This document shows positions 5,406 to 41,058 of a stretch of 64,000 bases of DNA, piece by piece. The notes beneath the pieces were generated by a model. It saw nothing but the letters and a program-made list of their open reading frames with translations. It searched no databases and was not told the origin of the DNA. Source of the DNA: a virus. Numbering within the stretch: the stretch's first letter is position 1; each line of letters opens with the position of its first letter. The DNA lies in IMG/VR virus record IMGVR_UViG_3300031576_000004, positions 64,001-128,000 of that record, one strand, 5' to 3'. The position numbers and the translations under genes were made by a program.

Positions 5406-5419
5406 ATAAGGAGTAATCA

Positions 5420-5620
5420 ATGTTCACCACCTGGTGCAACGTGGACGGGTGCCGCACCCGCTACAAGGGCAACGACAGGCCGAAGGACAGCTACACCTGC
5501 AACAAGCACAAGAGGCTCAAGGCCCGTGCGCCGAAGCAGAAGGCCTACGCCGAGAAGGACGCGGCAAACAAGCTCGCTGCCGAGCAGGCTGGGATCATGG
5601 TCGTCGAGCCGCCCGCCTAG
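5420..5620 (+). CDS. small Cys/His protein
   Basis: SD AAGGAG; CxxxxC...CxxH. Confidence 0.65.
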   Translation: MFTTWCNVDGCRTRYKGNDRPKDSYTCNKHKRLKARAPKQKAYAEKDAANKLAAEQAGIMVVEPPA

Positions 5621-5625
5621 ATAGC

Positions 5626-5635
5626 GGTATAAGAG
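5626..5635 (+). promoter_or_regulatory. recurrent GGTATAAGA motif (putative phage promoter)
   Basis: Also intergenic at 24581, 39514 and 63196, each upstream of a + strand unit. Confidence 0.5.
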
Positions 5636-5871
5636 CATAGAGACAAATCTAACTACACAAAGGAGGATCTATGACAGACTCAATGCCGATCTCTGCCAAT
5701 ATCCTCAGGCTTATGAGGATGCCTACCCAAAAGGAAGCCGACCACAGGATCAAAGCAGATAACTTCCTTCGGGCCAAGATCGCCCATATCACCATGCTCA
5801 AAAAGGATGGCGAGATGGTGTCCTTTGCGGATATGTATCCCCATGACAAAGACCAAATGGATCTGTGATCC

Positions 5872-5901
5872 AAGGCGCGGGCTAACAACCCGCGCTTTTT
5901 T
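5872..5901 (+). terminator. intrinsic terminator
   Basis: GCGCGGG-loop-CCCGCGC followed by a T-tract. Confidence 0.75.
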
Positions 5902-5915
5902 AAATAGGAGAATTA

Positions 5916-6527
5916 ATGCCGTACACAACGGTTACTGATAAAGACGGAAAGAAACATCGACTTAAGCATATGTCCAAAAAAGAAATGAAAGCCCATGGGA
6001 AGCAGAGCGATGGCATGCACCGCGTATGGCATATCTTTAACAAAGAGATCCGCCCTAACGGAAAGTGGATGTACATTGGGTCAGACCTAGAAGACAAGGT
6101 CGAGGAATTCGCTAAGCGATTCCCGAATGATGTCTTTGTTAGCTACTGCGACGACACCACCTTCTGCTCTTCCACCATCGCTTTGTTTGAGCATAAGTGC
6201 GCCACTAAATACATGGGCACAAGCATGCTCCTAATTCCCCAGCACGATGGAGAGCCAAGCGAAGTATTCCTATACCCAGGACATCAGCTTGGATTAATCC
6301 GTAGTCTGCAGGCGCTTGGAAAGCTTCCTGGGAATAAGACAATCTACGGGCTCTATCATAAATCTGTGGGTATGAATAAATTCAGGCATATCTATGATTT
6401 CGAGACCAGAAAGAAAGCAGCAGCTGGCCTTAAGTCTGTCCAGAAGGCTTCAAAGGTTAAGGCTGACAAGACCCAGTGGAGACTCAAGGCATTCGTGGGC
6501 AAGCGCCCAGATTTGGAGATCAAGTGA
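5916..6527 (+). CDS. hypothetical protein
   Basis: SD AGGAG, 203 aa. Confidence 0.7.
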   Translation: MPYTTVTDKDGKKHRLKHMSKKEMKAHGKQSDGMHRVWHIFNKEIRPNGKWMYIGSDLEDKVEEFAKRFPNDVFVSYCDDTTFCSSTIALFEHKCATKYMGTSMLLIPQHDGEPSEVFLYPGHQLGLIRSLQALGKLPGNKTIYGLYHKSVGMNKFRHIYDFETRKKAAAGLKSVQKASKVKADKTQWRLKAFVGKRPDLEIK

Positions 6528-13600: not shown

Positions 13601-14074
13601 ATGGACACAGAGACATATACGCAAGGTCTTTACGACTTTGCCATCGAGAGCAATAAGATCGAGGGCATCAAGCTCACCTATCGCCATAAGAACCATTCAG
13701 AAGCGCTGGAGAAGTTCCTCGCGAAGGCTGAGCTTGACATCTCTGCTCTAGAAGAGTTCGTGCACGCCGTCCAGCCTCGAGGTGGCCGGTTCCGCGTTAC
13801 CGAGACGGACATGGTCCAGGTTGGCACCCACATTGCTCCTGCACCAGCCGTAATGAAGCCGATGCTTGAGGAGCTTCTAAAGGAGATCAACACGGGCTCA
13901 GTTGACGAGTGGAACGCCCATGCCCGCTATGAGGTCCTGCATCCATTTATGGATGGCAACGGCCGCAGCGGAAGGGCAATCTGGTTGTGGATGGCAATGA
14001 AGAAGGGCTGGGAGTTCAAGCTTTCATTCCTGCAGATGTATTACTACCAGACTCTCAGCAATTACAGGAAGTAA
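13601..14074 (+). CDS. Fic-domain protein (putative AMP transferase)
   Basis: Canonical HPFMDGNGRSGR motif; N-terminal ESNKIEG. Confidence 0.9.
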   Translation: MDTETYTQGLYDFAIESNKIEGIKLTYRHKNHSEALEKFLAKAELDISALEEFVHAVQPRGGRFRVTETDMVQVGTHIAPAPAVMKPMLEELLKEINTGSVDEWNAHARYEVLHPFMDGNGRSGRAIWLWMAMKKGWEFKLSFLQMYYYQTLSNYRK

Positions 14075-15881: not shown

Positions 15882-17324
15882 GTGAATAAGAAGACGATCC
15901 GTGGCAAGGACTACGAAATCACTATGTCTCCGATGTCTCCAGAAGACATAAAGAAATTAACCGAAAAGACAGATCTCGTAGGCATAGAAGGATTAACAAT
16001 GGATGTTTCATTTGAATGGAGCGAAACAGGAGACAAAATGCAAGGATCGTCAATTGGAGCGATGGAAGCTGTAGAGGTAGCTCGTCCTAGCAACGAGCCT
16101 CCGATGCAGGCAACAAAGGCCGAGAGAAATCGGCCAATGATTAGGAACAAGCTCGATAAATCAAAGATGGTTACACATCCACTTGGCATCCCAGGTGGAT
16201 TTAGCTCTCAGTTCCACTTCAAGCCTCAATCCATGATTGAGTACACCATCGCCATTAAGGGCGCTGCGGATCTCTTCCAGCAAATGGACTATGTCAACGC
16301 TGGACCGAGAAACTACCTGCAAGTGGGACTAATGGAACACCAGGAATGCTTGGCAAATGGAGCAGCCGTTAAGAACATAGATGGGCATCTTACATCAGTT
16401 GTTCTTTCTACGAATCCCGACAACGGTATCTTCTCCGCTTCATTCCATAGTTACAACGAAGATGCCATGCAGAAGATGGCCAGCGAGTTTCATCGCGTTT
16501 GCAGCGAGGGAAACTTTTACCGTGGGAAGCATCTTAAGGCTATGGACTTTGATTGCCCACAGCCTCTGGTATTCCTATCTCCTCCAGCAAATCCTCTAAT
16601 CTACGGATTCAAGGAAGAGCAGGATGCAATTAATATGCATGCTGTTCGGTATTTCGAATGTGAAGAGATCCATAAGATCGCCCCTCAGAGAGGAGTTCTT
16701 CTCTATGGGCGTCCAGGCTCTGGAAAGAGTCTATTGGTCTCAAAGACGAAGTACGAATGCCTACAGAAAGGCATTACAGTGGTTGAGGCAAGCATCGAGG
16801 GTATGCGAGAGATCGGTAAGTGGTTCGCTCTTATCGAAGCATGGCTTGCCCCTGCCCTAGTTGTCCTTGAGGACGTGGATCTTATTGGTGGAGACAGGGA
16901 TATTCCTGAACTGCCCCACCAGCTTACTACAGATCTTCTGTCCAGCCTTGGCGGCAACACCAGGCGCATTAATCCCATCGTGACCATTGCCACGACCAAC
17001 CGCTTGGACTCTCTCGATAACGCATTCCTTCGGGCTCGGCGAATGGACAAGGTTATGGAGATCAATGGTCTCCAGCCTGATTTTAAAGCCGAGTTGTTCC
17101 GCCGGCATGGGATGAAGGTGACAGAACAGGCTCTTCAAGCCGCGGTTACTCAGCTCGGACCAGACACTACTGGAGCCGACGTTGAAGAGATTTCTGTCAG
17201 CACTCTGACCTATAGCCATTTCGGAATGCCACATGAAGAGGCCTTCACCAAGAGCCTGGGAGAATGGGCTAAGGGCCATTCCGCTAAAGCAAATCTTGGC
17301 TTTAACAAGAAGCAGCAAGACTAA
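15882..17324 (+). CDS. AAA+ ATPase (FtsH/Cdc48-like domain)
   Basis: Walker A GRPGSGKS, Walker B VVLEDVD, TTNRLDSLDNAFLRARRMD second region of homology. Confidence 0.9.
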   Translation: MNKKTIRGKDYEITMSPMSPEDIKKLTEKTDLVGIEGLTMDVSFEWSETGDKMQGSSIGAMEAVEVARPSNEPPMQATKAERNRPMIRNKLDKSKMVTHPLGIPGGFSSQFHFKPQSMIEYTIAIKGAADLFQQMDYVNAGPRNYLQVGLMEHQECLANGAAVKNIDGHLTSVVLSTNPDNGIFSASFHSYNEDAMQKMASEFHRVCSEGNFYRGKHLKAMDFDCPQPLVFLSPPANPLIYGFKEEQDAINMHAVRYFECEEIHKIAPQRGVLLYGRPGSGKSLLVSKTKYECLQKGITVVEASIEGMREIGKWFALIEAWLAPALVVLEDVDLIGGDRDIPELPHQLTTDLLSSLGGNTRRINPIVTIATTNRLDSLDNAFLRARRMDKVMEINGLQPDFKAELFRRHGMKVTEQALQAAVTQLGPDTTGADVEEISVSTLTYSHFGMPHEEAFTKSLGEWAKGHSAKANLGFNKKQQD

Positions 17325-17329
17325 CCTAT

Positions 17330-17518
17330 CCGTGTGGCTGCGAGGAAGGACTCGCAACAGTTAATAGAACAGAAAGGCACGGCTATCTGGTGGTTCCAGA
17401 TAGTTGTAATGGTCAATCTCCTATTGGTTGGAATGTGTCGCCAGCGGGCGGCCTCCGCAAATAGCCTCACCAGCCCTGAAAGCGGAAAGCCGGTGTCAAG
17501 TCCGGTCCACACGGGCCA
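17330..17518 (+). ncRNA. tRNA-like structured RNA B
   Basis: CCGTGTGG/CCACACGG stem plus GCCA end; TGCGAG/CTCGCA hairpin; T-arm-like GCCGG-TGTCAAGT-CCGGT; long central insert. Confidence 0.6.
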
Positions 17519-17575
17519 TAGCTACTCAACATATTTATAACTATATTTATAGGAGGATTCGCAGCGGAGACTTAA

Positions 17576-18325
17576 ATGAAACTTACGAGTAAGGATCTTG
17601 AAGAAGTTTATGAGGGCGAGACTCGGTTTGTTAAGGCAAAGGCGATGTTCGTTACCCCTCTGGTTGGCGGCGTTCCTGCCAGCCGTGAGGGTGTAGAGAA
17701 CTATGTCGAGTTCGCCATGAATCTTGTCCGTGACTCCCAGGAGTTCAAGGACAAGGTAGCCGAGATCTTGAAGGAAGAGATCGGCGAGAGAGAGATCAAG
17801 CCAGATGAGGGCGAGAAGGATGAGGTTGCGTCCTATGGCGTTAACTGCATCCGCAAGGATAAGTTCGGCCATTTCCTGATGGACTTCCAGATCAAGGCCA
17901 ACCTGAAGTGCGCTGCATCAAGGATCGGGCTATTCGTGGCCGATAAGGCCGCCGGCCGTAAGGCTGGAGCCAAGGGAGATATGGCTGAGCTCGGACGAGT
18001 TCACGCTATCGGTGCCTCATTGAGGGATGTTGAAAACAAGAGGAAGATCTATCTTCTTCAGAATGGCGGAACCCCAGTAAAGACTGTCTATGAGAAGTTC
18101 ATGGGCAAGGTGAGCAACGCCTCTGGCTCTCACTCCATCGTCCATGACTCTGAGGTCGCCCCTGCTGGAACCTGGTTCGAATTCGAGTTCAGGGCTCCGG
18201 ACAAGCGCCTCAAGGCTGAGGACTTCAAGCGCATCTTCGCGCACTCTGGTATTATCGGCTTCGGTTCCGCTCGTTCTCTGGAGCGCGGCAAGGTCGAGTA
18301 TCAGGAAGTTGAGATCGAGGATTAG
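17576..18325 (+). CDS. stand-alone RAMP/Cas7-group-like protein
   Basis: FVTPLVGG, FQIKANLK, SEVAPAGTWFEFEF and C-terminal Gly-rich loop GFGSARSLERGKV follow the Cas7/Csm3-type motif order. Confidence 0.7.
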   Translation: MKLTSKDLEEVYEGETRFVKAKAMFVTPLVGGVPASREGVENYVEFAMNLVRDSQEFKDKVAEILKEEIGEREIKPDEGEKDEVASYGVNCIRKDKFGHFLMDFQIKANLKCAASRIGLFVADKAAGRKAGAKGDMAELGRVHAIGASLRDVENKRKIYLLQNGGTPVKTVYEKFMGKVSNASGSHSIVHDSEVAPAGTWFEFEFRAPDKRLKAEDFKRIFAHSGIIGFGSARSLERGKVEYQEVEIED

Positions 18326-18334
18326 TTAGTAATT

Positions 18335-18477
18335 GGTTGGCGGCGGCGTGGAGAGCAGACACGCTTAAACAATACTGCGGATCCTACCCAATCACTGGAA
18401 CAGGTAGATTGAAGCCTATTGTTTTGCTGGACCCAGTGAATTCCAGATAGCCAGAGTAGCGCCTGGCCCGCCAACCA
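18335..18477 (+). ncRNA. tRNA-like structured RNA C
   Basis: GGTTGGCGG/CCGCCAACC(A) stem; GCGTG/CACGC hairpin; GCCAG-AGTAGCGC-CTGGC arm. Confidence 0.55.
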
Positions 18478-18497
18478 ATCTTTTTTGAAATTAGTTG

Positions 18498-18526
18498 TTG
18501 ACACCTATCCCATAGAATGCTAAAGT
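18498..18526 (+). promoter_or_regulatory. sigma70-type promoter of the tRNA operon
   Basis: TTGACA-17 bp-TAAAGT with TG extended -10. Confidence 0.75.
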
Positions 18527-18543
18527 TCGCCCCGAGGAGATCC

Positions 18544-18669
18544 ATGCTTTCATATAGGAAACCCTTTATTCAATTGTCGTGCGTGTGGGGAGAAAGCCTC
18601 CCACTACGCCCGATAACGCTCCATTCCGCCGGTCAGGCGGATAATACAAAGGAGCGGAGACTGGGATAA
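18544..18669 (+). CDS. leader peptide of the tRNA array (41 aa)
   Basis: SD GAGGAG 18534-18539; MLSYRKPFIQLSCVWGESLPLRPITLHSAGQADNTKERRLG*; 39 distinct codons, all 20 amino acids. Confidence 0.8.
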   Translation: MLSYRKPFIQLSCVWGESLPLRPITLHSAGQADNTKERRLG

Positions 18670-18736
18670 CGGGTTCCGAACTAGAGATAAAAGGAACCCG
18701 AAATCCCTGAAAAGGAATTTCGGGTTTTTTGTTTTT
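18670..18736 (+). terminator. attenuator: antiterminator versus intrinsic terminator
   Basis: CGGGTTCC(18670-77)/GGAACCCG(18693-700) competes with AACCCGAAAT(18695-704)/ATTTCGGGTT(18717-26) plus T-tract. Confidence 0.8.
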
Positions 18737-18774
18737 ACCTAGGACGACGAAAGGACGGTGCGGAAGAAATAACT

Positions 18775-18849
18775 GGGTCCTAAGCATTAACAGTGATGCA
18801 GTTGGCTCTTAACCAACAGAAGAGGGTGCGATTCCCTCAGGACCCACCA
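18775..18849 (+). tRNA. tRNA-Lys(CUU)
   Basis: cloverleaf, GTTGG-ctCTTaa-CCAAC, CCA. Confidence 0.9.
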
Positions 18850-18851
18850 AT

Positions 18852-18926
18852 GGGCTGTAAGCTTTAAAAGTGAAGCAGTTGGCCTTTAACCAACAGAACT
18901 CGGAGCGTTACCGAGGCGGCCCACCA
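18852..18926 (+). tRNA. tRNA-Lys(UUU)
   Basis: GTTGG-ccTTTaa-CCAAC, CCA. Confidence 0.85.
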
Positions 18927-18941
18927 ACTAATGATTTAAAC

Positions 18942-19017
18942 GGTGCTATGGTGTAGCGGCTCTGCATGCCTGGTTGTCAACCAGTAGGTCCGAGTTCGAC
19001 TCTCGGTAGTACCGCCA
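18942..19017 (+). tRNA. tRNA-Asp(GUC)
   Basis: anticodon loop ttGTCaa, TTCGA T-loop, CCA. Confidence 0.9.
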
Positions 19018-19032
19018 GATTAGATCGGTTCG

Positions 19033-19046
19033 GTTCTTTGAAAACT
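19033..19046 (+). promoter_or_regulatory. rrn-type boxA-like antitermination site
   Basis: GTTCTTTGAAAACT near the start of the tRNA operon. Confidence 0.55.
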
Positions 19047-19109
19047 TTGCGTGCGGGAACACCTGACTGAAGGAACTTCAGTAGGCCCGCATGATGTTGT
19101 GTGGTAAAT

Positions 19110-19185
19110 GCGCGCTTAACTCAGCGGCTAGAGTGCCTCTTTTACACGGAGGAAGTCAGGGGTTCGAGTCCCTTAGCGCGTACCA
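19110..19185 (+). tRNA. tRNA-Val(UAC)
   Basis: ttTACac loop, CCA. Confidence 0.9.
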
Positions 19186-19187
19186 GT

Positions 19188-19262
19188 TGCCCTGTCGTCT
19201 AATTGGCAAGACGCGAGACTTTGGATCTCGCTATTCAGGTTCGAACCCTGGCGGGGCAACCA
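19188..19262 (+). tRNA. tRNA-Gln(UUG)
   Basis: ctTTGga loop, CCA. Confidence 0.9.
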
Positions 19263-19272
19263 ATTTAAATAT

Positions 19273-19347
19273 CGGGCTCTAGGCTCGGAGTGAGCCGCTT
19301 GTTTCGGGAACAAGAGGCGGCGTGTGCAACTCACGCGAGCCCGACCA
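19273..19347 (+). tRNA. tRNA-Pro(CGG)
   Basis: ttCGGga loop, CCA. Confidence 0.85.
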
Positions 19348-19348
19348 T

Positions 19349-19423
19349 TCAGGAGTAGTTCAATTGGTAGAACGACAGACTCTGGATCTGTAGATCTTGG
19401 TTCGATTCCAGGCTCCTGAACCA
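19349..19423 (+). tRNA. tRNA-Gln(CUG)
   Basis: ctCTGga loop, CCA. Confidence 0.9.
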
Positions 19424-19442
19424 ATAGTAAACGATAAAATAT

Positions 19443-19517
19443 GGACCTGTAGCTCAAGGGTCAGAGCACGTGCCTTATAAGCACTAGACGGTGGTTCGAC
19501 TCCACCCAGGTCTACCA
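19443..19517 (+). tRNA. tRNA-Ile(UAU)
   Basis: ctTATaa loop, A73, CCA. Confidence 0.85.
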
Positions 19518-19518
19518 T

Positions 19519-19592
19519 GCGGGTTTAGCTCAAAAGAAGAGTGTTAGCGTGACATGCTAAAGACAGAGGAGCGTTACCTCTAACCCGCACCA
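19519..19592 (+). tRNA. tRNA-Val(GAC)
   Basis: gtGACat loop, CCA. Confidence 0.85.
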
Positions 19593-19593
19593 T

Positions 19594-19668
19594 CCACCCT
19601 TAACATAGAAGTCTATGTGCCTGTCTGATACGCAGGAAATCGTGGAGCGTTACCACGAGGGTGGACCA
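19594..19668 (+). tRNA. tRNA-Ile(GAU)
   Basis: ctGATac loop, CCA. Confidence 0.85.
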
Positions 19669-19687
19669 ATATAACAGGAGTTTATTC

Positions 19688-20056
19688 ATGCCATACAAAG
19701 ACCCAGCCATTCAGAGAGCATTCCAAAACAAATTCTTAAAAGAAAGACGGGATCTATGGCTAGCATCTAATGGCCCATGCTCCTGCGGATCTCGAATAGA
19801 TCTTCAAGTCGACCATGTGGATCCAAGCAAAAAGGTGGATCATAAAGTTTGGTCATGGTCAGAAAAAAGAAGAGCCGAAGAGTTGTCTAAATGCCAAGTT
19901 CTTTGCAAGAAGTGTCATAGAAAAAAGACGAACAAAGACAACAATTATGGACAAATCCACGGCACATATAATTCGTATAAACGATATTGTTGCCGGTGCG
20001 CTCCATGCAAAAAAGCTTCGGCAGAAGATAGAAGAAGGTGGAAGCGAAATAGATAA
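19688..20056 (+). CDS. HNH endonuclease inside the tRNA array
   Basis: SD AGGAG; CSCG...VDHVDP...CQVLCKKCH. Confidence 0.8.
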   Translation: MPYKDPAIQRAFQNKFLKERRDLWLASNGPCSCGSRIDLQVDHVDPSKKVDHKVWSWSEKRRAEELSKCQVLCKKCHRKKTNKDNNYGQIHGTYNSYKRYCCRCAPCKKASAEDRRRWKRNR

Positions 20057-20059
20057 CTT

Positions 20060-20134
20060 CGGGGTGTAGCTCAGAGGAAGAGCGCCTGGTTTGGGACCAG
20101 GAGGCCGAGATATCATAATTCTCCACCCCGACCA
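20060..20134 (+). tRNA. tRNA-Pro(UGG)
   Basis: ttTGGga loop, CCA. Confidence 0.85.
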
Positions 20135-20136
20135 AT

Positions 20137-20212
20137 GGTGGCTATAGCTCAAGTAGTAGAGCACGGGTCTGTGGAACCTGTTATGCGAGTGCAAGTCTCG
20201 CTAGTCACCCCA
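20137..20212 (+). tRNA. tRNA-His(GUG)
   Basis: ctGTGga loop, G-1/C73, CCA. Confidence 0.9.
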
Positions 20213-20221
20213 ACACAAAGT

Positions 20222-20328
20222 GCGCCGACCGATCGGATGGACGATCAGTGGGGATATCCCTTACCCATGAATACGCCCGAAAGGGGAATAGTGGGATAGC
20301 CAGAATCAATCCTGGCGCGGCGTTACCA
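20222..20328 (+). ncRNA. tRNA-like structured RNA D
   Basis: GCGCCG/CGGCGT stem, GATCG/CGATC hairpin, GCCAG-AATCAATC-CTGGC arm, ACCA end; no standard anticodon arm. Confidence 0.5.
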
Positions 20329-20329
20329 A

Positions 20330-28072: not shown

Positions 28073-29801
28073 TAGTTCCCCTCAGCATCTTTAGGGCATT
28101 GCTGACCTTAACCAGGGCTTCCATCGCGGTCTTGATTGGCTTCTCTTCGATCTTGGCTCCGATCCTTGAGGCAATCAAAAGATCTGCCAGATGAGAGGCG
28201 GCCTTCTCATACTGAGGAATGTGGCTGACATAATCAGCAACGTTCTCTTCGTTAATAAAGTTAAGACTTAGCACTGTATCAACTACGCCCTGGTCAGGAA
28301 GTTCTGCGGCGCACTTAATAAGTTCGCCACAGTCAAACCGAAGCGAGCCTAAAGTGGTCTGTATCTTGTGGTTAGCTACTTTAACAGGCTCCTCAAGGAT
28401 GACATCGTTAACGACGACTTTCCCATTCTTCATAGCGCGGAACATGGCTTCCTTGATGGCAGGCTCAGTGTAGCGCTCGCGCAGGAAGTTGAGAGCTTCC
28501 TTCCTTGTGACTCCCTCGCGAAGGCTGGAAACCTTAACGCTCTCTCCGCTGAACGAGAATGAGTGCCCGTCGCACTTGATCTCAAGGTTGCGCCCGCCAA
28601 CCTTCCGGATGCCATCCAGCATCGCAATATTGAATGGGTTATCCTCAAGCTTTGTTACGTTCTTCAGGGTCGCGATCTTCATCGCGGTCGGGACATATGT
28701 GATCCCTTCCTGACTGAAGATGTTCTTAACCTTATCACTCTGAACAATCTTGAAGCTGTGGCCGAATGTGTCCTGGACACCCCACTCGCGCACGCCATCA
28801 TTGGCTGTTTTTGCCATGACCTTTACTGGAGTCGTAGCCACGGAAGTCGTGCCGCGCTCAGTGAAGAAGAACATGGTGTCGCCTAGCTTCGGATCTTCGC
28901 TCGGAAGATTGTGAGCAATCCCAGCCTTGAAGCCGGCGAGCTTCTCCTGGATGGCGCAGCGATCACCCTTGAAGATCACTTGGTCCTGGCGGTTCAGGCT
29001 GTAGTCATAAACATTAGGGAATACAACCCCCTCAACACGTTCGCCATTCGGCCTGACTGCAGCATATTTCGCAAAGGTATCAGCCATGACGGGCACTTCA
29101 GATTCCATAATAGAAATGTCATGCCTTACGCGTGGTGTTACCCGCAGTGCTGCGGCAGTCTTCTTTAGGCCAGAGCGCTTCTTAGCGTGGGTGAAGGCCT
29201 CCTTGATGACGCCAATTGTTCCATTAACAGCCATGGCAGCCGTGGACGACTTATCCTCAGCAAACTTCTCAAGCATGAACTTTACCTGGTCCTCGTGTAG
29301 GTCTACGGCCTGCAGGATGGACCCGTATGTCCGACCCTCGATGTGGATCTCCTTCTGCGCGCCATTAACATTGGCATAGGTATATTTGCCATCGTAAGGT
29401 GGCATGGTCCTGTTGTAGATCAGGGAGTCAACGTAGGCGTCCTGCTTCTGGTTCTGTGGCTTGCCCACGTCTGTCTTCATTAGAACCGTCTCTAGGGTAT
29501 CCTTGGTCAGAGGATATGCCGAGCCTGCTTTCAGGAAGACGTCCAGCGGAGACATCTCGCCCTTCTTGATAATCAAAGGTACATTAACATCGACGCCAAG
29601 CTTGATGTACCCGTAGGCATATCCCTTCTTGGCGTCGGCCTTCTTGATAATTACCTCAACATCCTTGTTGGCCATATAAGGGTGCTCTTCATTGAGGATC
29701 TGAATGATCTCGGCATCCCACTGCTCTGGCGTTCCAGAGAGCTGGTGGTTAGCTACCTTCTGAAAAGAGTTCTTCTCAATGAATAGATTTTCGAGATCCA
29801 T
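28065..29801 (-). CDS. putative virion head/internal protein
   Basis: 578 aa; SD GGAGG; repeated KxA motifs. Confidence 0.65.
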   Translation of the reverse strand: MDLENLFIEKNSFQKVANHQLSGTPEQWDAEIIQILNEEHPYMANKDVEVIIKKADAKKGYAYGYIKLGVDVNVPLIIKKGEMSPLDVFLKAGSAYPLTKDTLETVLMKTDVGKPQNQKQDAYVDSLIYNRTMPPYDGKYTYANVNGAQKEIHIEGRTYGSILQAVDLHEDQVKFMLEKFAEDKSSTAAMAVNGTIGVIKEAFTHAKKRSGLKKTAAALRVTPRVRHDISIMESEVPVMADTFAKYAAVRPNGERVEGVVFPNVYDYSLNRQDQVIFKGDRCAIQEKLAGFKAGIAHNLPSEDPKLGDTMFFFTERGTTSVATTPVKVMAKTANDGVREWGVQDTFGHSFKIVQSDKVKNIFSQEGITYVPTAMKIATLKNVTKLEDNPFNIAMLDGIRKVGGRNLEIKCDGHSFSFSGESVKVSSLREGVTRKEALNFLRERYTEPAIKEAMFRAMKNGKVVVNDVILEEPVKVANHKIQTTLGSLRFDCGELIKCAAELPDQGVVDTVLSLNFINEENVADYVSHIPQYEKAASHLADLLIASRIGAKIEEKPIKTAMEALVKVSNALKMLRGTNE

Positions 29802-31485: not shown

Positions 31486-33057
31486 TCATTTCATTGGTGA
31501 ATTCTCGGGGACGCTGCCAGCCTCATCGGCCCCGATGGTTTTTAGTGCCGGTGCTCTTAGAGCTCCGGATGGGAACTGCTCCTGAGCCTGGACCTTGGCA
31601 TAAAGACCTCTGTATGCCTTCGGGTTCTCCCACATCTTCTTCCTAAGCGCATGAGAGAATCCGGTCCCGACTTTGCCGACGACATCCGAAGTAGGCTTCA
31701 TGCTATATGTGAAGCCGCCAGCCATCTTTCCTTTCATGCCGCCGCCTGCAGGGAACACATCCCTGATGACGACATCATAAACTGGCTTTATTTTAGCTTT
31801 AATTGGTGTCTTGGGTTCATCTAGGTTCCAGAGAACTACGCCCTCCTTTGTCTCCGGATGCCTCCCAGCTTTGATCTTCTCAAGGAGCTTTTCTTTTTCG
31901 CTTGGCCCGTGTGCTTCCGCTGGGAGCTCGAAGATCTTGGGTAGCAACTTTCTAACTTCCTTAAGAGCTTCGAGCCTTTCTCTGTAAGGCTTTTTAGAGT
32001 AGTCCTCTCCTCGAAATCGCTCCACATCAAAGACAGCGTTTGCCATTTCGACAGCTTGCTGCTTTTGCTTTGTTCTACTGAGGAAAACCCCGCTATTAAG
32101 GAGCCCGCCCAAGTCCTTAGCTGGGATAGCTTTTCCTGAACTATGTTTGCGGGCATATACTTCTCCCCTCAGAATTGTGTCTCCCAGTTCCTTGGGAGCT
32201 CTCTGGCCTACGAGCTTTGGAATCCTATACGTGTGCTGGATAATACCTGTTTCTCGCTCTGTTGGTCTATGGGAAAAGGCCTTAATCTGTTTCCCTGGAG
32301 TGAGGTGATAGCTCAAATGAGCCCCATCAATCTTTGCCTGCATTAGATGTGACTTGTCTTCCATGTTGATCTGGTCTGGCTTTATATCTTTATAGTCCTG
32401 CTTGCTCGTTGGAACCTGTGGGTGCGTTTCCTTGGTTGGCGTCCGATTCATTAGAAGCCAGCCTTTATCCTTCAGCCTGACAAGCGTGTATTCCTCTGTG
32501 TCTTTGCCTGGATATAGGTTGAAGTTAATCTTATTGTTTGTGGCCTCAACAACCTCGGCGTCTTCCCTGCGATGCCGATAGACCATGCCTTTCCCGTACC
32601 CAGTCTTTAGCTCTCCGGCAAAGTCAAAGTACGGGATAGTGTGGGTCGGCTGCTGGACGGCATAGGTTGACTTGCCAGGTTTCGGAAGCTCTCTGGTAGC
32701 CCAGGAATGCCCATAGCCAGTCTGAGGATCTCCGAGCCTAACATCAAAGTGCTTTCCGGCCCTTGCAGCATGATGCTCCTGCACAACGAACGGCCAGAAG
32801 TCCTCAGTCTCCGTGGTTACCTTCCTAATTGGATGAAGCTTCTTGTCTAGAGGTATTCCTGGGGCGAATTCGCGATATTTTTTATTCGGATTCTCGGTGG
32901 ATATCTTCGTGAATTCTTCCACGAACCCGCTCATCATCGCCTTCTTAACATGCTCCGGAAGGTTCTTCTGGCCTGGATGCTCATGAGCCCACCTAGAGGC
33001 GATGTCTGGTTTCTTTGCCCATAGTAGCCTGCGCTGGGCTTCTGAGCGAAACGGCAT
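31486..33057 (-). CDS. LigD-type 3'-phosphoesterase fused to an ATP-dependent DNA ligase
   Basis: FVVQEHHA...HFDVRL...SWA (PE domain); AKIDG, LRGE, VFDV, EGVV, VGTGFS (ligase and OB fold). Confidence 0.85.
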   Translation of the reverse strand: MPFRSEAQRRLLWAKKPDIASRWAHEHPGQKNLPEHVKKAMMSGFVEEFTKISTENPNKKYREFAPGIPLDKKLHPIRKVTTETEDFWPFVVQEHHAARAGKHFDVRLGDPQTGYGHSWATRELPKPGKSTYAVQQPTHTIPYFDFAGELKTGYGKGMVYRHRREDAEVVEATNNKINFNLYPGKDTEEYTLVRLKDKGWLLMNRTPTKETHPQVPTSKQDYKDIKPDQINMEDKSHLMQAKIDGAHLSYHLTPGKQIKAFSHRPTERETGIIQHTYRIPKLVGQRAPKELGDTILRGEVYARKHSSGKAIPAKDLGGLLNSGVFLSRTKQKQQAVEMANAVFDVERFRGEDYSKKPYRERLEALKEVRKLLPKIFELPAEAHGPSEKEKLLEKIKAGRHPETKEGVVLWNLDEPKTPIKAKIKPVYDVVIRDVFPAGGGMKGKMAGGFTYSMKPTSDVVGKVGTGFSHALRKKMWENPKAYRGLYAKVQAQEQFPSGALRAPALKTIGADEAGSVPENSPMK

Positions 33058-33059
33058 GA

Positions 33060-36000
33060 CTATTCCTTCTGATCTCTCTGGTCGAATAGCGCTCTAGCTG
33101 GACTCTTGTCTTCCTCTTCCGCTGGAGTGTCCCCACGCGCATGCCCTTTAGCCTTTAAGCCTTTCTTAGGATCAGTCCCAGCATTAGCCGCGCCCTTGCT
33201 GGTCTTCTTTGTTTCTCCAAGATTACTTCCTGAGGCTTCAAGATCTCTGCCCTTCATTCCAGGCTTATCATTGAAGTTCCCATCTCCTCCAAATTCCCTA
33301 ACACCGGCTTCATCTGGCTGACGCGCTCCGAGCCCCTTGTAGCCTCCGCCACTAAGCTTTTCCATCTCTTCAAATTCAATCTCATCAACAAGCTTTAGCT
33401 CGGCTGTCTTCCCGAAGTTAGCGCCATAGGCATAGGCAGCAACTGGGCTCCCACCTACGATATCGGACTTCCATCCCTGCGAAGCGCCTTCCGTTAGGGT
33501 CCCTGCAAGGCGCTGGAAATTAAGCCTGGATAGCCAGTCCTCGCTCATTAGCGGGAATGTATTAATGCCCTTCATTACTGATTCGAACTTGATCGGGCTC
33601 TTCGCAGTCTCGTTGTGCTTCTCAAGATGACTGACTGTTGTGTAATCCCCAGGAGAGAACGTGGCATGGTCGCCTGGATCTAGAATCCTTGCCTGGTTCG
33701 TGAGTGGACGAACAATCGTCTCAAGAAGGCGCTTCTTAACGCCAACTCCCTGCCCAGCATACTCCTTATGTAACTCATCAACGAGATACCTCTGGGCGGA
33801 GAAGACTCCTTTAAGCTCCATTAATTCCTGAGGCTTAAGAACTCCGTCGCTCAGAGAATCCCCCTTAATGACCTTATCGCCAACATTAACCTTCATTGTC
33901 CTGCTGGCTGGAACATGATGCTCTTCCCCGCCAACGCTGATATGCCAACCTCCAACAGGAGCCTTCTTAATTGTGTCTACCTTGCCAGAGACTGTAGAGA
34001 GTGTTGCCTTGTCTCTTACGATCTTTGGCATCTCAAGAAGCTGTTTCACCCTGGTGAAGCCGGACAGAATGCCGCCCTGTTCACCAGCGATGCCTCCAGT
34101 GTGGAATGTCTTCATGGTCATCTGTGTGGCCGGCTCTGTAATTGTATGCCCAGCAATAACACCGATGTTTTCGCCTGTCCTAAGAAGCTGGCCATTCTCG
34201 GTAAGACCAAAGCACGTCGCACATGTTCCATGCATCGATTCGCAGGTAAGAGGTGATCTGACCATCAGGCTCTTTATCAATGGATTCTTTGACAGAATAT
34301 TCGGAGTAATTAACGTGCCTCGTGTAATCGGGCCTGACGTTTCGGATACATATCGATCCAGAATATCCTTGTCAGAAGTGCTCATGCTAATGCCGCGCTT
34401 TGTTCCGCAATCCTGCTCTGTTATGCGATGAGATACCGTAGAGTTCATTAGCTCTTTAGCGAACGCTCCTGGCTCACTGGTCTGCAGAGCGCGGTCCATC
34501 ATGCCTTTACGGGCTCCTGCAGTAGAGATCCAGTAATCCCCCATGTCCAAGCCCTCTGCGTAGGACTTTGTAATGGGCATCGCAACCGTGCGGTCGCTTG
34601 TATCCTTAACAAGAATAGGAGCAACAACCATCTGACGCAAGTTACCCATGGATCCCTTAGCGCCTGAATCCTGCATGTCATACAAAGAGTTCTGCTTCAG
34701 GCTGAAGACGCTCTTCAGAGCCGTATTGATCCTAGTCGTCGCCTTGTCGTACGCTCCGATAATAGATTCCTTCGTGTTCCCGCCCTTCTTTGCCTCTGCT
34801 GCGGCTTCATCGAAGATGTCTCCCTTAATCTTAGGATCGAACTTGAAGTCATCCAAGCCAACAGAGAATCCCTGCTCATAGACAGTCTGGTTACCAAGGT
34901 TCTTTAGCTTGTGTACGACTTCGGCAAAAAGCTTCGGGTCGTCTTTGTTAATAGAATCGAGAAGATCATTTAGCGCCTTGCTGGTTAGGATAAGGTCATT
35001 GTTCCTATACTTCTGTGGAATGACTGCATTAACAACAAGCTTTCCAACGGTTGTCTTTAGGCCGCGGATAGTTACCAGATCAGAGGGCTTTATCTTCCCG
35101 TTCTTGTATTCCTCTAGAGCCTGCTCCGCTGTAGTGAATACCTTCTTAGTGTCTACGCCGCCCTTGGTAAGCATATAGAGACCCAGCACAGCCTCCTGAC
35201 CTGGGACATGCATAACCTGGTTGTTTCTTGGATTATAAACGTTGTTGCTAGGCAACATCGAGAAGGACTCCTTGCGGGCCTCCTCAGTTACAGGAACATG
35301 GATAGCCATGGTATCGCCGTCGAAGTCAGCGTTGAACCCCTTAACAACGAGAGGGTTCAGGCGTATGGCTTTCCCTTCAACAAGCTTTGGCTGGAACGAC
35401 ATAATGGAGAACTTGTGCAGAGTCGGAGCCCTGTTTGCCATCACCGGTCTATCCCGCATGGCGATCTCAAGAGCCTTTCGTGCAACAGGAGACTTGTCCT
35501 CAAGTTCCTTGCGGGCATCAAGCGGCTTGTAGCCCTGCTGGTGTAGTTCTTTAATCGCGAACGGCCTGTAGATCTTCCAGGCCATGTCCTCAGGAATCCC
35601 GATCTCATCCAGCGTCAGCTGTGGCTCAGGGATAATTGTGGACCTGCCTGAAATCTCTTGTCTGCGACTAATGATCCGGTTCTGGAAGAATCCTTCCTTG
35701 TTCCTATTGCCTTTAATGGTCTCAATGAGTCCGCGGTATTCTCTATTGGTTAGGGTATCACCTAGACCAGAGACGCCCTTCATCCCCTGGTAGAGATCCT
35801 TCCTCAGATTCTTCAACTCAGAATCAGGAATACCTGCGGCCTTTGAGTCCTTGATCGAGTTATTAACTGCGATCAGATCCTTGTAGAGAGCGTTAACGTC
35901 AGAGACAACGAGGTTCCCGTCTTCAAGCGGATAGATCGGACGGAACTTCGGCGGGATAACAGGAACGTTCTTTGTTATGTAAACATTCGGATCCTGCTTG

Positions 36001-39000
36001 TTATCCTTCAGGGCCTTAAGGTAGCGGATCTTCTTGTTTGCCTTATCGAGCTCGTCACCAGTCAAACCCTTTGCATCACCAACTGCTCCGGCTAGATCCT
36101 TTGTGACGTTAACCTTATCAAGCAGCTTTTTAATGGCGACGCCGCCAGTTACAGATCCAGCTTCATGGGTCGCAGTAAATCCATGCTTCTCTGAGTAGTA
36201 AAGCTCACCAGAGATTAACGCGTCGTACTGAGACCCAGTCAGGCCTGTAATCGTTTTAATGGCGTTCTCAAACATCGGGTTAGGGAGAGCCTCTGAGAGC
36301 TCGATGTGGGACCACTTAGACCCAGCATGCCCGCCGGTAATATTGGGATCGAACAAGCCATCCTTCTCTGGCTGTAGGTTCTTTCCCTTGATGATCTTTG
36401 GCTCCTTAATTTCGCCAGAGCTCATCGAGCGCACTTCTTTATCGGTCATGGGAACAAGCTGCATGTTGTTCCCGTCTTTCTTGACATCTACGCCGGTGCC
36501 CTTCACCATCGTTATGAACTTCTCGAATGCGAAGGGGACCTTTGGCGCTGGAAGTGACTGGCCTGTCTGAATGGCGCGCCAGAACTCCTCGTTCTTCTCG
36601 CTCTTGTGCGTAGCCATTTCACGAAGGTTATGTTTTGCTCCGTGGGCAAGCATGGCGTAAAGATCTAGGGTTCCGATGGACTGGCCACCTTCTCCGCCAC
36701 CTTGTCCAGGCTGCATATCGGCCGTATAGCCGTCACGATCTCTCGCAGAGAACTTCTTCCTTGTCGGATGGTCAAGCTTCAAGATGTACTGCCTGCCAAC
36801 AAGAACAGGCGGAAGCTTCCTGTTGAGTTCTGGATCAAATATAGTTTCTTTGTCCGTAAGGCCAGCGTCCTTGAGGTCTTTCTGAACCTTCTCAAGGTAA
36901 TTGTCCTCAGAGAAGTTCCTAACTACATATGGCTTGCCAGTCTTATCAGCAATCTTGCCAGCTACGGTCTCGAGAACCTGCCCAACGTTAACGCGGGACG
37001 GAATCCCGTGAGGGTTCATTAGGATGTCTATCTTCGTTCCGTCGTTAAGAGTTGGGGTCTCAGCGTCAGATAGGATCTTCCCAATAATGCCCTTGTTTCC
37101 GTGCCGACCAACTAGCTTATCCCCTACTTTGGCTGGCTCTTCCGTAGAGATAAGGACCTCGATCTTTCCACCAGTCTTAACAACGTCGGTAACTGTCCCG
37201 ACGTCATCCTCTTCCCATGTGACGGATCGATTCTTATATGGCTTGATAAACGCCTTGTGCAGCTTGGAAAGGAGCACGTCGTCAGTTGTCTTCTCTTCCT
37301 TCCGCATTAGGGCAATAACGATTTCTCCATAAGCGACCTTTTCGCCCTTCTTAATTACTCCATCGGCATCATATTTTCCAGACTGCGCAACGCTGATGTT
37401 CTCTGGGTAATACGCCTTGAATTTGTCCAGGTTTAGAAGGGCATTCTGATCCAGCTGCGCCGACATGCGATGCATGTGCAATGACGTCAGCTTCTTCGCC
37501 GCACTCTCGGAGACAACAATGGCGTCTTCGAAATTGTAGCCCTTATATGGGACGTATGCCGTTACAAGGTTAGTCCCTAGGGCGATATGCCCGTCCTTCG
37601 TGTAATTAAGTTCATCAAGAAGCTGGCCCTTGGTTACCTTGTCCCCAACCTTAACCTGTGGGGCAGAGTCCAGATAGACCTTAGAGTTAAGTGGGTAGTG
37701 ATCATAAAGCGGATAACGATTTGTCTTCCCTGATTTCCCCTTAACAAAAACAGCGTCCTCGGTGACCTTTGTGACGGTCCCATCCTCATGGGACTTGCTC
37801 GTGTATCCAGCGCCAATCTTGCTCTCATAGGTGCTGCCCTGTTTATCTTCAACCTGAACAAGCGGGCGCTCTCTATGAAGAAGCGGGAGGGCCTGCTCCA
37901 TCATCTTTGAGGCCATCATGGCCCTGTTACCCTGGTCATTCTGCAGAAACGGGACCATATTTGTCGAAACGTCAAACATCGAGCTCGGTGATGGAATTAT
38001 ATATTGAACCTGTTCTGGCTTTACCTTGGCCACCTCGCCCTTATGAATTGCCTTAACTAATGGATATTTCGTGACGAATTTCCCGCCCTTAAGCTCATCC
38101 TGATATTGATCCCTAAACCCAACAACGACATCAAATACTTGGTTCGGAGACAGTTCTTCTTTAAGTCCAGTCTTGGCATTAAACAGGGCCGTCTTTAGGC
38201 TGTTACCTACCTTTGAAGCATTAAGCGCTAAGTGCAGAGTGGTTCCGATGGCCCCTGATTCTGGCGAATGAAGCGGGTCCAGGAATCCGATTGAAGAAGG
38301 GTGAACAGCTCGCGCCTCTGCGGTGACGGCATGCTCATTTCCAATGCCGCCCTCGCCCATGATGGTGACCTTGGTTGTCTCTCCTAGCATATGCAGAGGA
38401 TTAGTCTGCTCTGGTGTGTTGGATAGCGTCGTAGAGGTAAAGAAATCCTGGATGGGGGCATTGAGGGTATCAATCCCGATGATGTCCCTAATCCTGTCTT
38501 TCTTATCAATTACAAAGCCAATTCTAGCTTTAATCCTATTAGCGCTTTTTGTAATACGCTCAGCCACAAAGTCGTCTGTGGAATGTATTGTCTTGAACTC
38601 CAGTGAGTCCCTGTCATCAGGGGCTCTTTCGTTCCTGGATACGGTCAGGATGCGCGCAGACGTGCTGAGAAGCATATCTGCCGTCACGCTGGCGAACGCC
38701 GTCCCCAGCGTCATTTTTGTCGTCTCTGGGTCGATCTTGGTGTCGTTGAAATAGTTTGATATCGCGGCGATTGAAGTAGCTAGATCTGGGGCTGCCTTAT
38801 CGAAAATAGCCCTATAAAGCTTGGCTATTTCCTTGTCGTAATTACCACCTTTGTTCTGTGCGGCTAGATCATTACCCCAAGCGCCAGCGATCTTGGCCTC
38901 TGTAATCCCAAGGGCCATGAGAGCGTGGTATAGCTTTACGTTGGATGTCCCTACATTTAAATAGAATGTTCCGCTTGTAGGATCAAGGATAATCTTGAAA

Positions 39001-39582: not shown

Positions 39583-40128
39583 ATGTTCCTGTCACTAAAG
39601 GTTCTGGTGGCATACCCAGCCGTAGGAATCGTAGCTGTAGCTTTGGGAATCATCCCAGAGATACAGACAGAGATGCACGCGAGGGCGCTCGGGTTCGACA
39701 CGTCTAAGAAGCTCGAGTTTCTGCCCCTAGAAGAGCGGGCAATGCCTGCTGCGAAGCCGGAAGCATTGATCAACAACAAGTTCGTCAACGCCGTCATAAA
39801 TGTGGAGAGCGGCTGGGATCCGAACGCTGTGAGCAGGTGCGGTGCCAGGGGCCTCATGCAAATCATGGAACCAACCTGGAAGGACATGACTGATCGCCCG
39901 TGGGAAGAAGCATTTAACCCGACGACCAATAGGGATGTCGGAACTAAATATCTTCACTGGATCGAGAAGTACATTCAGAAGAACGGGGGGATCCCTACGC
40001 GGAATCTGATCGCAGCCGCATACAATGGCGGAGTCGGAAGACTGAAGAAGTTCGGCTGGGACATCAGCAAGATGCCGACCGAAACAAGGCAATACATCCA
40101 CAAAGTCAACGCCGCCTACGACAAGTAG
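39583..40128 (+). CDS. SLT-family lytic transglycosylase with hydrophobic N-terminus
   Basis: VESGWDPNAVS..GARGLMQIM, AAYNGG; SD AAGGAG. Confidence 0.9.
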   Translation: MFLSLKVLVAYPAVGIVAVALGIIPEIQTEMHARALGFDTSKKLEFLPLEERAMPAAKPEALINNKFVNAVINVESGWDPNAVSRCGARGLMQIMEPTWKDMTDRPWEEAFNPTTNRDVGTKYLHWIEKYIQKNGGIPTRNLIAAAYNGGVGRLKKFGWDISKMPTETRQYIHKVNAAYDK

Positions 40129-40541
40129 GCCGGTGTAGACTATGGGGTGCGATCGCCAGCGACCATGAAAGTGGGCGCGGAATAAGAGAGGCTGTTGTAC
40201 CAACGACGGCAGCTGAAAGGATCGGCCCCACCTTTAATAATGCGGTGTGGGGCATAAACAAAAAGGAGGTGATATACTAGATGGGAGACTGGCTGATCGG
40301 AGTTTGGAAGGTTCTTAAAGAACTTTCTGAGTCGGCAAAATCATGGCGATGAGGTGACACATGGACCTACTCGCGTACTTGATTCTTCTCTATTGTTGCG
40401 TAGGCGCATACAAAGGGGTCATCGCATCTATTCACGGATTACCAATCCTAAATAGAGATTGCGATGGCAGTCCAGACTTTGAAGACAAAACATGGTTTTT
40501 CGCAACAGTTATGTTTCTAGATATATTTCTTTGGCCACTTC

Positions 40542-40982
40542 ATGAGAGGGGGGGGTAATGGTGACGTGAGAGTACAACAATCATTTGGGACTGCCTTTGC
40601 AAGCATTCCTGCATTCCAAGAACTGAAAAGGAAGCAGGAAGAGTTCACCAAAGACAGCATCAAAAAGGAACAAGCGGCTGCCCTGGCGCATGTCGAATCC
40701 ATGCGTCAGGAGCGGCTCTCAAAAAAGAACGCAGCTCTTCACAGAGTTCGCGTAGCTTCTATCGACCAGAATATCGAGAACATCAATCCAAACAACTCAA
40801 CCGCTCTAGACAACGCGGCAAATCACCTCCTAAGAAGGGGTAGCGTTTGGATCCATGAAGGCTATATCGGCTCCAATCGGGAGCAGATTGCCTTCGAGCT
40901 TGAGATGCAGCTTGTCGGGGTATTGCTCGATGAGCACGAGCTCGAAAACAGAATGAAGCTCCGCTGTGAAGCGGAATTCTAG
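40542..40982 (+). CDS. hypothetical protein
   Basis: ORF ends at a long hairpin; start uncertain. Confidence 0.55.
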   Translation: MRGGGNGDVRVQQSFGTAFASIPAFQELKRKQEEFTKDSIKKEQAAALAHVESMRQERLSKKNAALHRVRVASIDQNIENINPNNSTALDNAANHLLRRGSVWIHEGYIGSNREQIAFELEMQLVGVLLDEHELENRMKLRCEAEF

Positions 40983-40994
40983 TTAGGCGTTGGA

Positions 40995-41034
40995 CAGAGG
41001 GAGTTTTGGCCGGCAACGGCCGAGACTCCCTCTG
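40995..41034. terminator. long hairpin between convergent genes
   Basis: CAGAGGGAGTTTTGGCCG-GCAA-CGGCCGAGACTCCCTCTG. Confidence 0.6.
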
Positions 41035-41058
41035 CGGGCCGAGGCATTTATTTAGCTA

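Follow-up and report, generated by a model that had tools for sequence, protein, structure and literature searches.

The gene at positions 17576-18325 of the window, by which we mean the whole stretch of 64,000 nucleotides analysed (bases 64,001-128,000 of the 163,302-bp IMG/VR virus record IMGVR_UViG_3300031576_000004, estimated to be 88% complete), encodes a Cas7-like RAMP protein that is very probably the effector (Vipr) of a non-canonical VIPR system with a split locus, served by a remote array of 35 guides. The evidence comprises the fold of the protein, its remote homology to Vipr proteins, the coupling of gene and array from genome to genome, the pentamer logo of the guides, and their in-frame, wobble-skipping matches to a small phage.

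VIPR systems, described in 2026 (bioRxiv 10.64898/2026.04.26.720920 and 10.64898/2026.04.26.720927), are built on a stand-alone and mostly viral RAMP, Vipr, which possesses an RRM core, a loop rich in glycine (the G-loop), and a thumb. Their vrRNAs consist of 9-16 YNNGG repeats (GGY/NN), with "a related consensus" allowed by the discovery preprint, and are encoded in the intergenic regions flanking vipr. DNA is recognized through the NN bases, one target base being skipped per repeat and the skips falling mostly on the wobble position of codons; natural targets lie in competing phages and satellites, which are silenced. Seven types have been distinguished, whose arrays vary in architecture and may be staggered, the backbone register is 5 nt in VIPR versus 6 nt in CRISPR, and VIPR has been proposed as the viral ancestor of the CRISPR RAMPs. 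In the SUSP1 Vipr structure, one protomer is bound per repeat, where G1 and G2 are read by H17, D177, R138, and W178, and Y3 is held by helix-1 and R179.

Fold, family, and conserved elements of the RAMP protein

The vipr-like gene (+ strand, genome 81,576-82,325) begins with ATG, is preceded at a distance of 5 nt by a Shine-Dalgarno-like GGAG read from the sequence (17567-17570, + strand), and encodes a stand-alone, single-RRM RAMP of 249 aa. It is present in a single copy in the 163-kb genome. The protein has no family match in Pfam, PHROG, NCBIfam, or PADLOC, a tblastn search against 50,697 phage records returned no match, and neither did a profile search of the PDB sequences. Ten distant members of the RAMP family also belong to no Pfam family, and distant members displayed weak, sub-threshold C-terminal (G-loop) matches to Cas6 and Csm4 profiles (E 0.004-0.04). 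A word-indexed search recovered 17 relatives at 38-48% identity, and an exhaustive search revealed 123 family clusters at 50% identity. The nearest clusters in the ESM Atlas are 88-100% viral, and a single family match was found among ~185,000 species genomes, on a 5.4-kb contig of a Rhodospirillales metagenome-assembled genome (MAG); the family is thus almost exclusively viral.

An AlphaFold2 model of the 249-aa protein, built from an 18-sequence alignment, reached a pLDDT of 84.2 and a pTM of 0.78. Structural comparison of this model by Foldseek revealed best PDB matches that were all Cas7-type RAMPs, namely Csm3, type VII Cas7, Cmr4, Csf2, and Cas7-11, with E values down to 5.5e-7. A wide structural search with VIA-align identified Csm3 (9g9a_D) at Z 10.5 over 159 residues with a root-mean-square deviation of 4.1, together with 6ae2_B at Z 10.3, while a second look gave a top Z of 11.6 and 195 chains at a Z of at least 8, with Cas6 reaching only ~6. 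Sequence identity to the structural matches is 9-16%. An original prediction, made from the sequence without database searches, had called the gene a RAMP of the Cas7 group with a C-terminal glycine-rich loop and a codon usage rich in C-ending and AAG/GAG codons, and all of these claims held: the model and its exclusively Cas7-type matches (Z 10.5-11.6) establish the RAMP fold, the loop is real and conserved, and among the 106 genome open reading frames (ORFs) of at least 150 aa the gene ranks fifth in third-position GC (GC3), fourth in third-position C (C3), 12th in AAG, and fifth in GAG. Its codon usage is strongly biased and expression-like.

Column conservation was counted over 67 family members. 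The RRM helix-1 (17882-17923, + strand, residues 103-116), delineated by DSSP on the model, column conservation, and hhalign alignment to the Vipr helix-1, presents a conserved basic face with the conserved residues K107, A108, K111, A113, A114, S/T115, and R116; the RNA-binding role of this helix comes from the VIPR cryo-electron microscopy preprint (bioRxiv 10.64898/2026.04.26.720920 / 10.64898/2026.04.26.720927). The long beta-hairpin at 18086-18160 (+ strand, residues 171-195), in which G177 is invariant and V179, G184, S187, I188, and E193 are near-invariant, would be the thumb, as hhalign sets it opposite the SUSP1 hairpin that bears the thumb residue R138. The glycine-rich loop (18257-18289, + strand, residues 228-238) follows the family consensus G-[LVI]-G-S-[AVC]-[KR]-[SA]-x-E-x-G, with G228, G230, and G238 invariant in the 67 members, S231 present in 63/67, and K/R233 in 61/67. 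The candidate counterpart of the Csm3 catalytic Asp, a residue of the beta1-alpha1 loop that serves RNA cleavage in type III systems, is position 36 (its equivalence to Csm3 D32/D33 is putative). Among the 67 members it is occupied by D in 32 cases, by G in 12, by S in 10, and by T in 7, and in the present protein by S. The ORF is intact and keeps all family-invariant residues.

The SUSP1 vipr gene was located in KT454805 at 28474-29061 (- strand), with YNNGG tracts on both sides, and its identity was confirmed by PDB 36pp ("SUSP1 Vipr protein"). Alignment of the 67 family members to 31 SUSP1-clade Viprs by hhalign gave a Prob of 87.3% and an E value of 3.7e-6 over 128 columns that extend from helix-1 to the G-loop; this provides moderate support, at the level of sequence profiles, for homology of the RAMP family to the Vipr proteins. 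As a control, a relative 97% identical to SUSP1 Vipr was modelled (pLDDT 94.5); it displayed the same secondary-structure order as the model of the 249-aa protein and a nearly identical ranked PDB list and scores (9g9a_D at Z 11.0, 6s6b_I at 10.6, and 6ae2_B at 10.4). In the G-loop, hhalign places D177-W178-R179 of SUSP1 on S231-A232-R233 of the 249-aa protein, suggesting that the guanine-reading residues were replaced and the pyrimidine-clamping residue was kept, a pattern that would fit a change of the fixed guide bases from GGY to xAY.

The remote guide array and its predicted targets

The window's own genome (G000; L-numbers denote the other records and loci examined) carries a guide array at genome 40,027-41,420, ~40 kb upstream of the RAMP gene, on the same (+) strand and outside the window. 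The array comprises 35 head-to-tail units, each consisting of AGC[AG]GC (AGCRGC) followed by 5-9 pentamers ending in A-Y (NNNAY), with unit lengths that are mostly 5n+3. An anchored pattern, defined as AGCRGC plus four NNNAY with one mismatch allowed, matched the genome 25 times, all within 40,027-41,398 and none in the window. Just upstream of the array, at genome 39,982, lies the promoter-like GATATAAG, a variant of the octamer GGTATAAG; the latter, found for instance at window 12612 and 24581, has 15 copies on the + strand of this genome and 0 on the - strand, and is likely to be a promoter element of the phage. Beside the array lies a 185-aa ORF that is unrelated to the RAMP family (hhalign Prob 0.09%) and lacks a convincing match in Pfam.

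In the other homolog-bearing records compared, which are nine viral loci and one MAG contig, an AGCRGC + (NNNAY)n array abuts the homolog on the gene's strand in 10/10 cases, and its last unit often ends a few bases short of the homolog's ribosome-binding site. The anchored pattern found gene-adjoining arrays in the records of L003, L004, L006, and L008, a scoring scan of the loci added those of L002, L005, L007, and L011, and in the L009 and L010 records clusters of seven in-phase AY units flank the homolog, with a reversed-pattern control of 0; across the array searches, the reversed-pattern controls gave 0-1 matches. An array is therefore present in 11/11 gene-bearing genomes, the 40-kb gap being unique to the window's genome, where vrRNA-type tracts such as those flanking the gene in all 10 relatives are absent from the window. 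At the BLAST level, no protein-coding neighbour, cas genes included, is conserved across the 10 other loci, and the tRNA context of the gene is not conserved among them either.

These results, obtained by inspecting homolog neighbourhoods and searching the rest of the genome for short-period arrays, overturn the view that the gene is an orphan. The original prediction of a minimal, non-CRISPR, RNA-guided complex on a Cas7-like protein was essentially right, given the pentamer arrays in all 11 genomes and the alignment to Viprs; it erred in taking the structured RNAs beside the gene as the guides.

Two further observations concern the relatives. A weakly conserved small helical ORF (76-110 aa) is found just upstream of the arrays in 5/10 relatives (L002 2247-2510, L005 5841-6071, L006 582-902, L009 9269-9580, and L010 8858-9190), one member having a C-terminal zinc ribbon; the family is a candidate accessory gene, and it is absent from the window's genome. 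In L003 (6308-8043) and L005 (7134-8570), a tyrosine integrase follows the vipr-like gene, with an HTH_17 protein in between in L003, which places these systems at the integration module of temperate phages.

The guides are 33-54 nt long, and their pentamer logo is random at positions 1-2, weakly S-biased (G/C) at position 3, A at position 4, and Y at position 5. Position 4 is A in 62-82% of the in-register units, and in 53% in the short L007 tract; the logo is clear in 6/7 arrays examined and weak in this tract. Within one array the fixed triplet varies, taking the forms GAC, CAC, GAT, CAT, AAC, and others; GAC and CAC are the commonest in the arrays seen here.

For target prediction, pentamer positions 1-2 were taken as NN and the three longest guides were scanned against IMG/VR under the 1-nt-skip rule. 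Guide 40930, with nine NN, matches one 13.5-kb contig, L015 (IMGVR_UViG_3300032038_001269, 13,554 bp), which encodes a major head protein, terminase, DNA polymerase, single-stranded DNA-binding protein (SSB), and tail genes. The match corresponds to codons 2-10 of an 83-aa ORF (L015 4887-5138, - strand). The adjacent guide 40892 matches L015 perfectly, 6/6 NN corresponding to codons 7-12 of the next ORF (5414-5935, - strand), while guide 40657 matches 13/14 bases in the L015 SSB gene, on the opposite strand and in register with the wobble positions. For all of the guides 40930, 40892, and 40657, the skipped base is the wobble base, and the matches of 40892 and 40657 to L015 exceed those of shuffled-order controls. 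A further perfect 6-unit match would arise by chance with a probability that we estimate at ~0.015, considering the 13.5-kb L015 (27 kb two-stranded) and nine 6-unit guides. L015 is a small phage and the predicted target, and the genes matched in it are those for an 83-aa protein resembling nucleotide kinases, a 173-aa protein rich in Q, and the SSB. No guide matches its own genome above shuffled controls, the target scan with guide 40604 gave no match, and two single matches of guide 40550 were rejected as being at chance level and supported by no other guide above controls.

Proposed mechanism and rival explanations

In the mechanism that we propose, the array would be transcribed on the + strand, with the GATATAAG motif just upstream, and the transcript would yield guides of 33-54 nt, either cut or separately transcribed, that are delimited at AGCRGC. 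The protein expressed from the gene 40 kb away would then polymerise with one protomer per 5-nt repeat, as in SUSP1, such that the x-A-Y bases would be buried, with helix-1, the thumb hairpin, and the G-loop holding them, while the NN bases would be displayed and could pair with double-stranded DNA, every third base being skipped. The resulting filament would bind the DNA of a competing phage near gene 5' ends and block transcription. It is by analogy with VIPR that filament assembly, the targeting of DNA and not RNA, silencing, and the separation of guides at AGCRGC are expected here. As the gene lies at genome 81,576-82,325 and the sole array at 40,027-41,420, the protein must act in trans. 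Tentatively, and as a possibility that we would not yet call probable, the system may constitute a distinct VIPR type outside the seven published, in which S-A in place of D-W in the G-loop re-specifies GGY to xAY, the guides are tail-less and delimited only by AGCRGC, and the separation of gene and array is tolerated, yielding a trans-acting library of 35 guides.

Several observations weigh against assigning the gene to VIPR. The 249-aa protein has no pairwise similarity to SUSP1 Vipr, the family profile scored a Prob of 1.9% against the single SUSP1 sequence, and the homology rests on one profile-profile comparison. The own-genome array is 40 kb from the gene, so that local linkage, the usual evidence, is borrowed from the relatives, among whose loci a conserved accessory (vap) gene was not found. 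The units are tail-less, without the structured 3' tail of type II vrRNAs, and the target evidence amounts to one contig and short guides, a small sample. Finally, a strict scan of the own genome found no run of at least four YNNGG units, and the canonical GGY/NN is absent. However, the xAY motif stands in place of GGY/NN, a related consensus is allowed, and variants have been reported, and therefore what is excluded is the canonical subtype, not the VIPR kind.

A different function for the same fold would be that of a Cas6-like RAMP endoribonuclease or RNA chaperone that cuts or coats structured phage RNAs, either the transcript of the array, at AGCRGC, or the tRNA-like elements and precursors of tRNAs around the gene, with no guided DNA recognition. 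Cas6 proteins are RAMPs with the same G-loop, the distant family members gave the weak Cas6 and Csm4 matches described above (E 0.004-0.04), the gene lies between structured RNAs and near an array of 33 tRNA genes and a transfer-messenger RNA (tmRNA), and the AGCRGC punctuation suggests a processing site. We nevertheless consider this unlikely, given that the Cas7 fold matches (Z 10-11.6) are clearly above those to Cas6 (Z ~6), that the tRNA neighbours and structured flanks are not conserved among the relatives, and that in-frame wobble-skipping matches to foreign genes are unexpected for a mere processing substrate. One and the same protein could both process RNA and form filaments, and self-processing at AGCRGC is possible. 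It is also conceivable that the gene and array are decoupled remnants of a VIPR locus, of which one alone still works, for example as solo vrRNAs that hijack another phage's Vipr. Solo vrRNAs have been reported in phages without vipr, and the 40-kb separation has no parallel among the 11 genomes. Yet the ORF is intact, with the family-invariant residues all kept and an expression-like codon usage, and the array units are well formed and in register, with the promoter-like GATATAAG upstream and on the same strand as the gene, which makes a remnant very unlikely.

The remaining alternatives relate the gene to CRISPR-Cas. The protein could be a stray part of a conventional system (type III, IV, or VII), the rest of which lies in the missing part of the phage or in the host. 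The record is estimated to be 88% complete, and huge phages sometimes carry partial CRISPR-Cas loci. However, a k-mer scan of the 163-kb record for CRISPR-like repeats found none, the only repetitive region being a coding gene at window 56.7-57.8 kb, and PF03787 (the Pfam RAMP family) has no match in the record, a search in which the other cas families were not individually covered. The absence of a CRISPR array, claimed for the window, hence extends to the whole record, and the rest of the genome holds a VIPR-type array where a complete CRISPR-Cas locus might have explained the gene. With no cas neighbour in the 10 other loci, including two from records with an estimated completeness of 100%, and a family nearly absent from cellular genomes, we regard a stray CRISPR-Cas component as extremely improbable. 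Alternatively, as the original prediction had also suggested, the protein may be an anti-CRISPR (Acr) decoy, a viral Cas7 copy that replaces the backbone subunit of a host type III, IV, or I complex and puts the complex out of action, in the way of AcrIB3 with Cas5. That orphan cas genes of viruses can act as anti-CRISPRs is documented by the Cas-derived AcrIB3, AcrIB4, and AcrVIA2 (Katz et al., bioRxiv 10.1101/2023.06.24.545427), the fold is Cas7-like, and D occupies position 36 in just 32/67 members, as expected of an inactive subunit. In contrast to the Cas-derived Acrs, which keep ~24-40% identity to the host Cas protein (bioRxiv 10.1101/2023.06.24.545427), the RAMP family has no Cas profile match in Pfam, NCBIfam, or PADLOC and is 9-16% identical to its structural matches. 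Moreover, viruses harbour an old and diverse set of these proteins (123 clusters at 50% identity), the RNA-binding motifs of the family are conserved, its own guide-like array is always present, and the guides match a rival phage and not a host, all of which disfavours the decoy and leaves it highly improbable.

Genome setting and comparison with known systems

Transcription around the RAMP gene is dominated by the + strand, and the order of genes is small ORFs, a Fic-domain protein, an AAA+ ATPase, the RAMP gene, tRNA genes with HNH endonucleases, and tmRNA. The 157-aa Fic/DOC-domain protein is encoded at window 13601-14074 (Pfam E 2.6e-8). The 480-aa AAA+ protein (window 15882-17324) possesses a classic C-terminal AAA+ domain resembling proteasome-activating nucleotidase and CDC48, weak PADLOC matches to IetA and TRIP13, and an unannotated N-terminal region of ~250 aa; as an accessory gene it was rejected, having no counterpart beside the RAMP homologs. 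The tRNA array, with 33 tRNA genes called by ARAGORN, spans window 18775-25495, to which Rfam adds two at 19519-19589 and 20060-20131; it is interrupted by HNH endonuclease genes at 19661-20056, 21715-22113, and 23976-24575, and the tmRNA at 25105-25495 carries the tag ANSNVINGSFGSRAGVVAMAA. The tRNA array is closely preceded by a stretch of ~220 nt with strong structure (18498-18745, fold z -5.4), which contains a 50-codon ORF (18517-18669) and has its own sigma70-like promoter (TTGACA-17-TAAAGT) and putative intrinsic terminator; this stretch belongs with the tRNA array, not with the RAMP gene. Further away on the - strand, a 772-aa ORF (56310-58628) contains many short in-frame DNA repeats with an extreme GC skew (-0.2) and is the sole repeat-rich region of the genome besides the guide array, and a 2119-aa unannotated ORF (33060-39419) lies adjacent to a 523-aa ORF (31486-33057) that matches ATP-dependent DNA ligase.

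The spacers that flank the RAMP gene had been described as tRNA-like RNAs on both sides, but ARAGORN and Rfam, the latter including a permissive threshold, call none at 17325-17575 or 18326-18480, the first called tRNA starting at 18775. Each flank can be folded into a closed multi-branch structure with a terminal stem followed by CCA, the energy of the fold being unremarkable upstream (z -1.6) and moderate downstream (z -3.1), and in both spacers (17325-17575 and 18326-18486) the terminal stem adjoins a 5-bp hairpin with an 8-nt loop. The downstream structure, past the stop codon at 18332-18486 (+ strand), has a 12-bp closing stem around a multi-branch insert and then a U-run, with a minimum free energy of -54.6 kcal/mol (z -3.06), and is probably the terminator of the RAMP gene. 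The flanks contain no pentamer repeats, no NNNAY or AGCRGC pattern match occurs anywhere in the window, and such structured flanks were not found beside the homologs. A guide function of these RNAs is thus not supported, the guides being those of the array ~40 kb away, and the spacers may represent tRNA-like processing signals unrelated to the pentamer guides.

The VIPR kind is already known from preprints of April-October 2026, as are GAC/NN and CAC/NN arrays beside Vipr-like folds. Our analysis adds the pairing of gene and array over 11 genomes, the AGCRGC-punctuated, tail-less architecture, the G-loop difference, the 35-guide split locus, and a predicted natural target, and it extends VIPR to a family that sequence searches do not link to Vipr. 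Because 40 kb can separate an effector gene from its guide array, RAMP genes and pentamer arrays that look like "orphans" in phage genomes should be paired genome-wide, not locus by locus. The G-loop pair (D-W with GGY versus S-A with xAY) further offers a natural contrast for how the fixed bases are read, which bears on re-engineering of the code, and the guide matches predict a concrete conflict between a 163-kb cave-metagenome phage and a 13.5-kb phage.

Compared with CRISPR-Cas, the protein resembles Csm3 and Cmr4, the Cas7 proteins of type III systems, which are its best structural matches and share the layout of helix-1, thumb, and G-loop for RNA binding; by analogy with VIPR, it may also resemble them in polymerising on a guide with a register set by a constant repeat length. 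Unlike Csm3 and Cmr4, it does not have Cas10, Csm2, Csm4, Csm5, or Cas6 as a neighbour, is not accompanied by CRISPR repeats, matches nothing in Pfam or TIGRFAM, and varies within its family at the candidate catalytic Asp position; the system is viral, not cellular. As with AcrIB3, AcrIB4, and AcrVIA2, a cas-like gene stands alone in a phage genome; these Acrs, however, are clearly related in sequence to the Cas protein of the host and do not come with their own guide array, and the RAMP family shows neither property.

The closest likeness is to the type II VIPR of Escherichia phage SUSP1, which is likewise based on a stand-alone phage single-RRM RAMP with helix-1, a thumb hairpin, and a G-loop, and on guides of 5-nt repeats with three constrained and two free bases, whose natural matches obey the 1-nt skip at wobble positions of a competing phage. 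The two differ in the fixed motif (GGY in SUSP1, xAY here), in the G-loop (D177-W178-R179 versus S-A-R), and in the size of the protein, which at 249 aa compared with the 195 aa of SUSP1 Vipr has an additional helix at the N-terminus and an additional hairpin ahead of helix-1. Whereas SUSP1 has four vrRNAs, 35 guides are arranged here head-to-tail and punctuated by AGCRGC, a vap1 homolog was not found, and the array lies 40 kb from the gene.

Non-canonical GAC/NN, CAC/NN, WGT/NN, and TGH/NN arrays were identified by entropy periodicity in a language-model survey of October 2026 (bioRxiv 10.64898/2026.10.21.760802), and the present arrays share with them the period of 5, a non-GGY fixed trinucleotide, and a co-located protein of Vipr-like fold. 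Relative to that survey, which gives clusters only and is compared here by description, the present analysis contributes the AGCRGC punctuation, the remoteness of the array, and the natural targets, and, unlike the survey's fixed triplets, the triplet of the present system is degenerate within one array.

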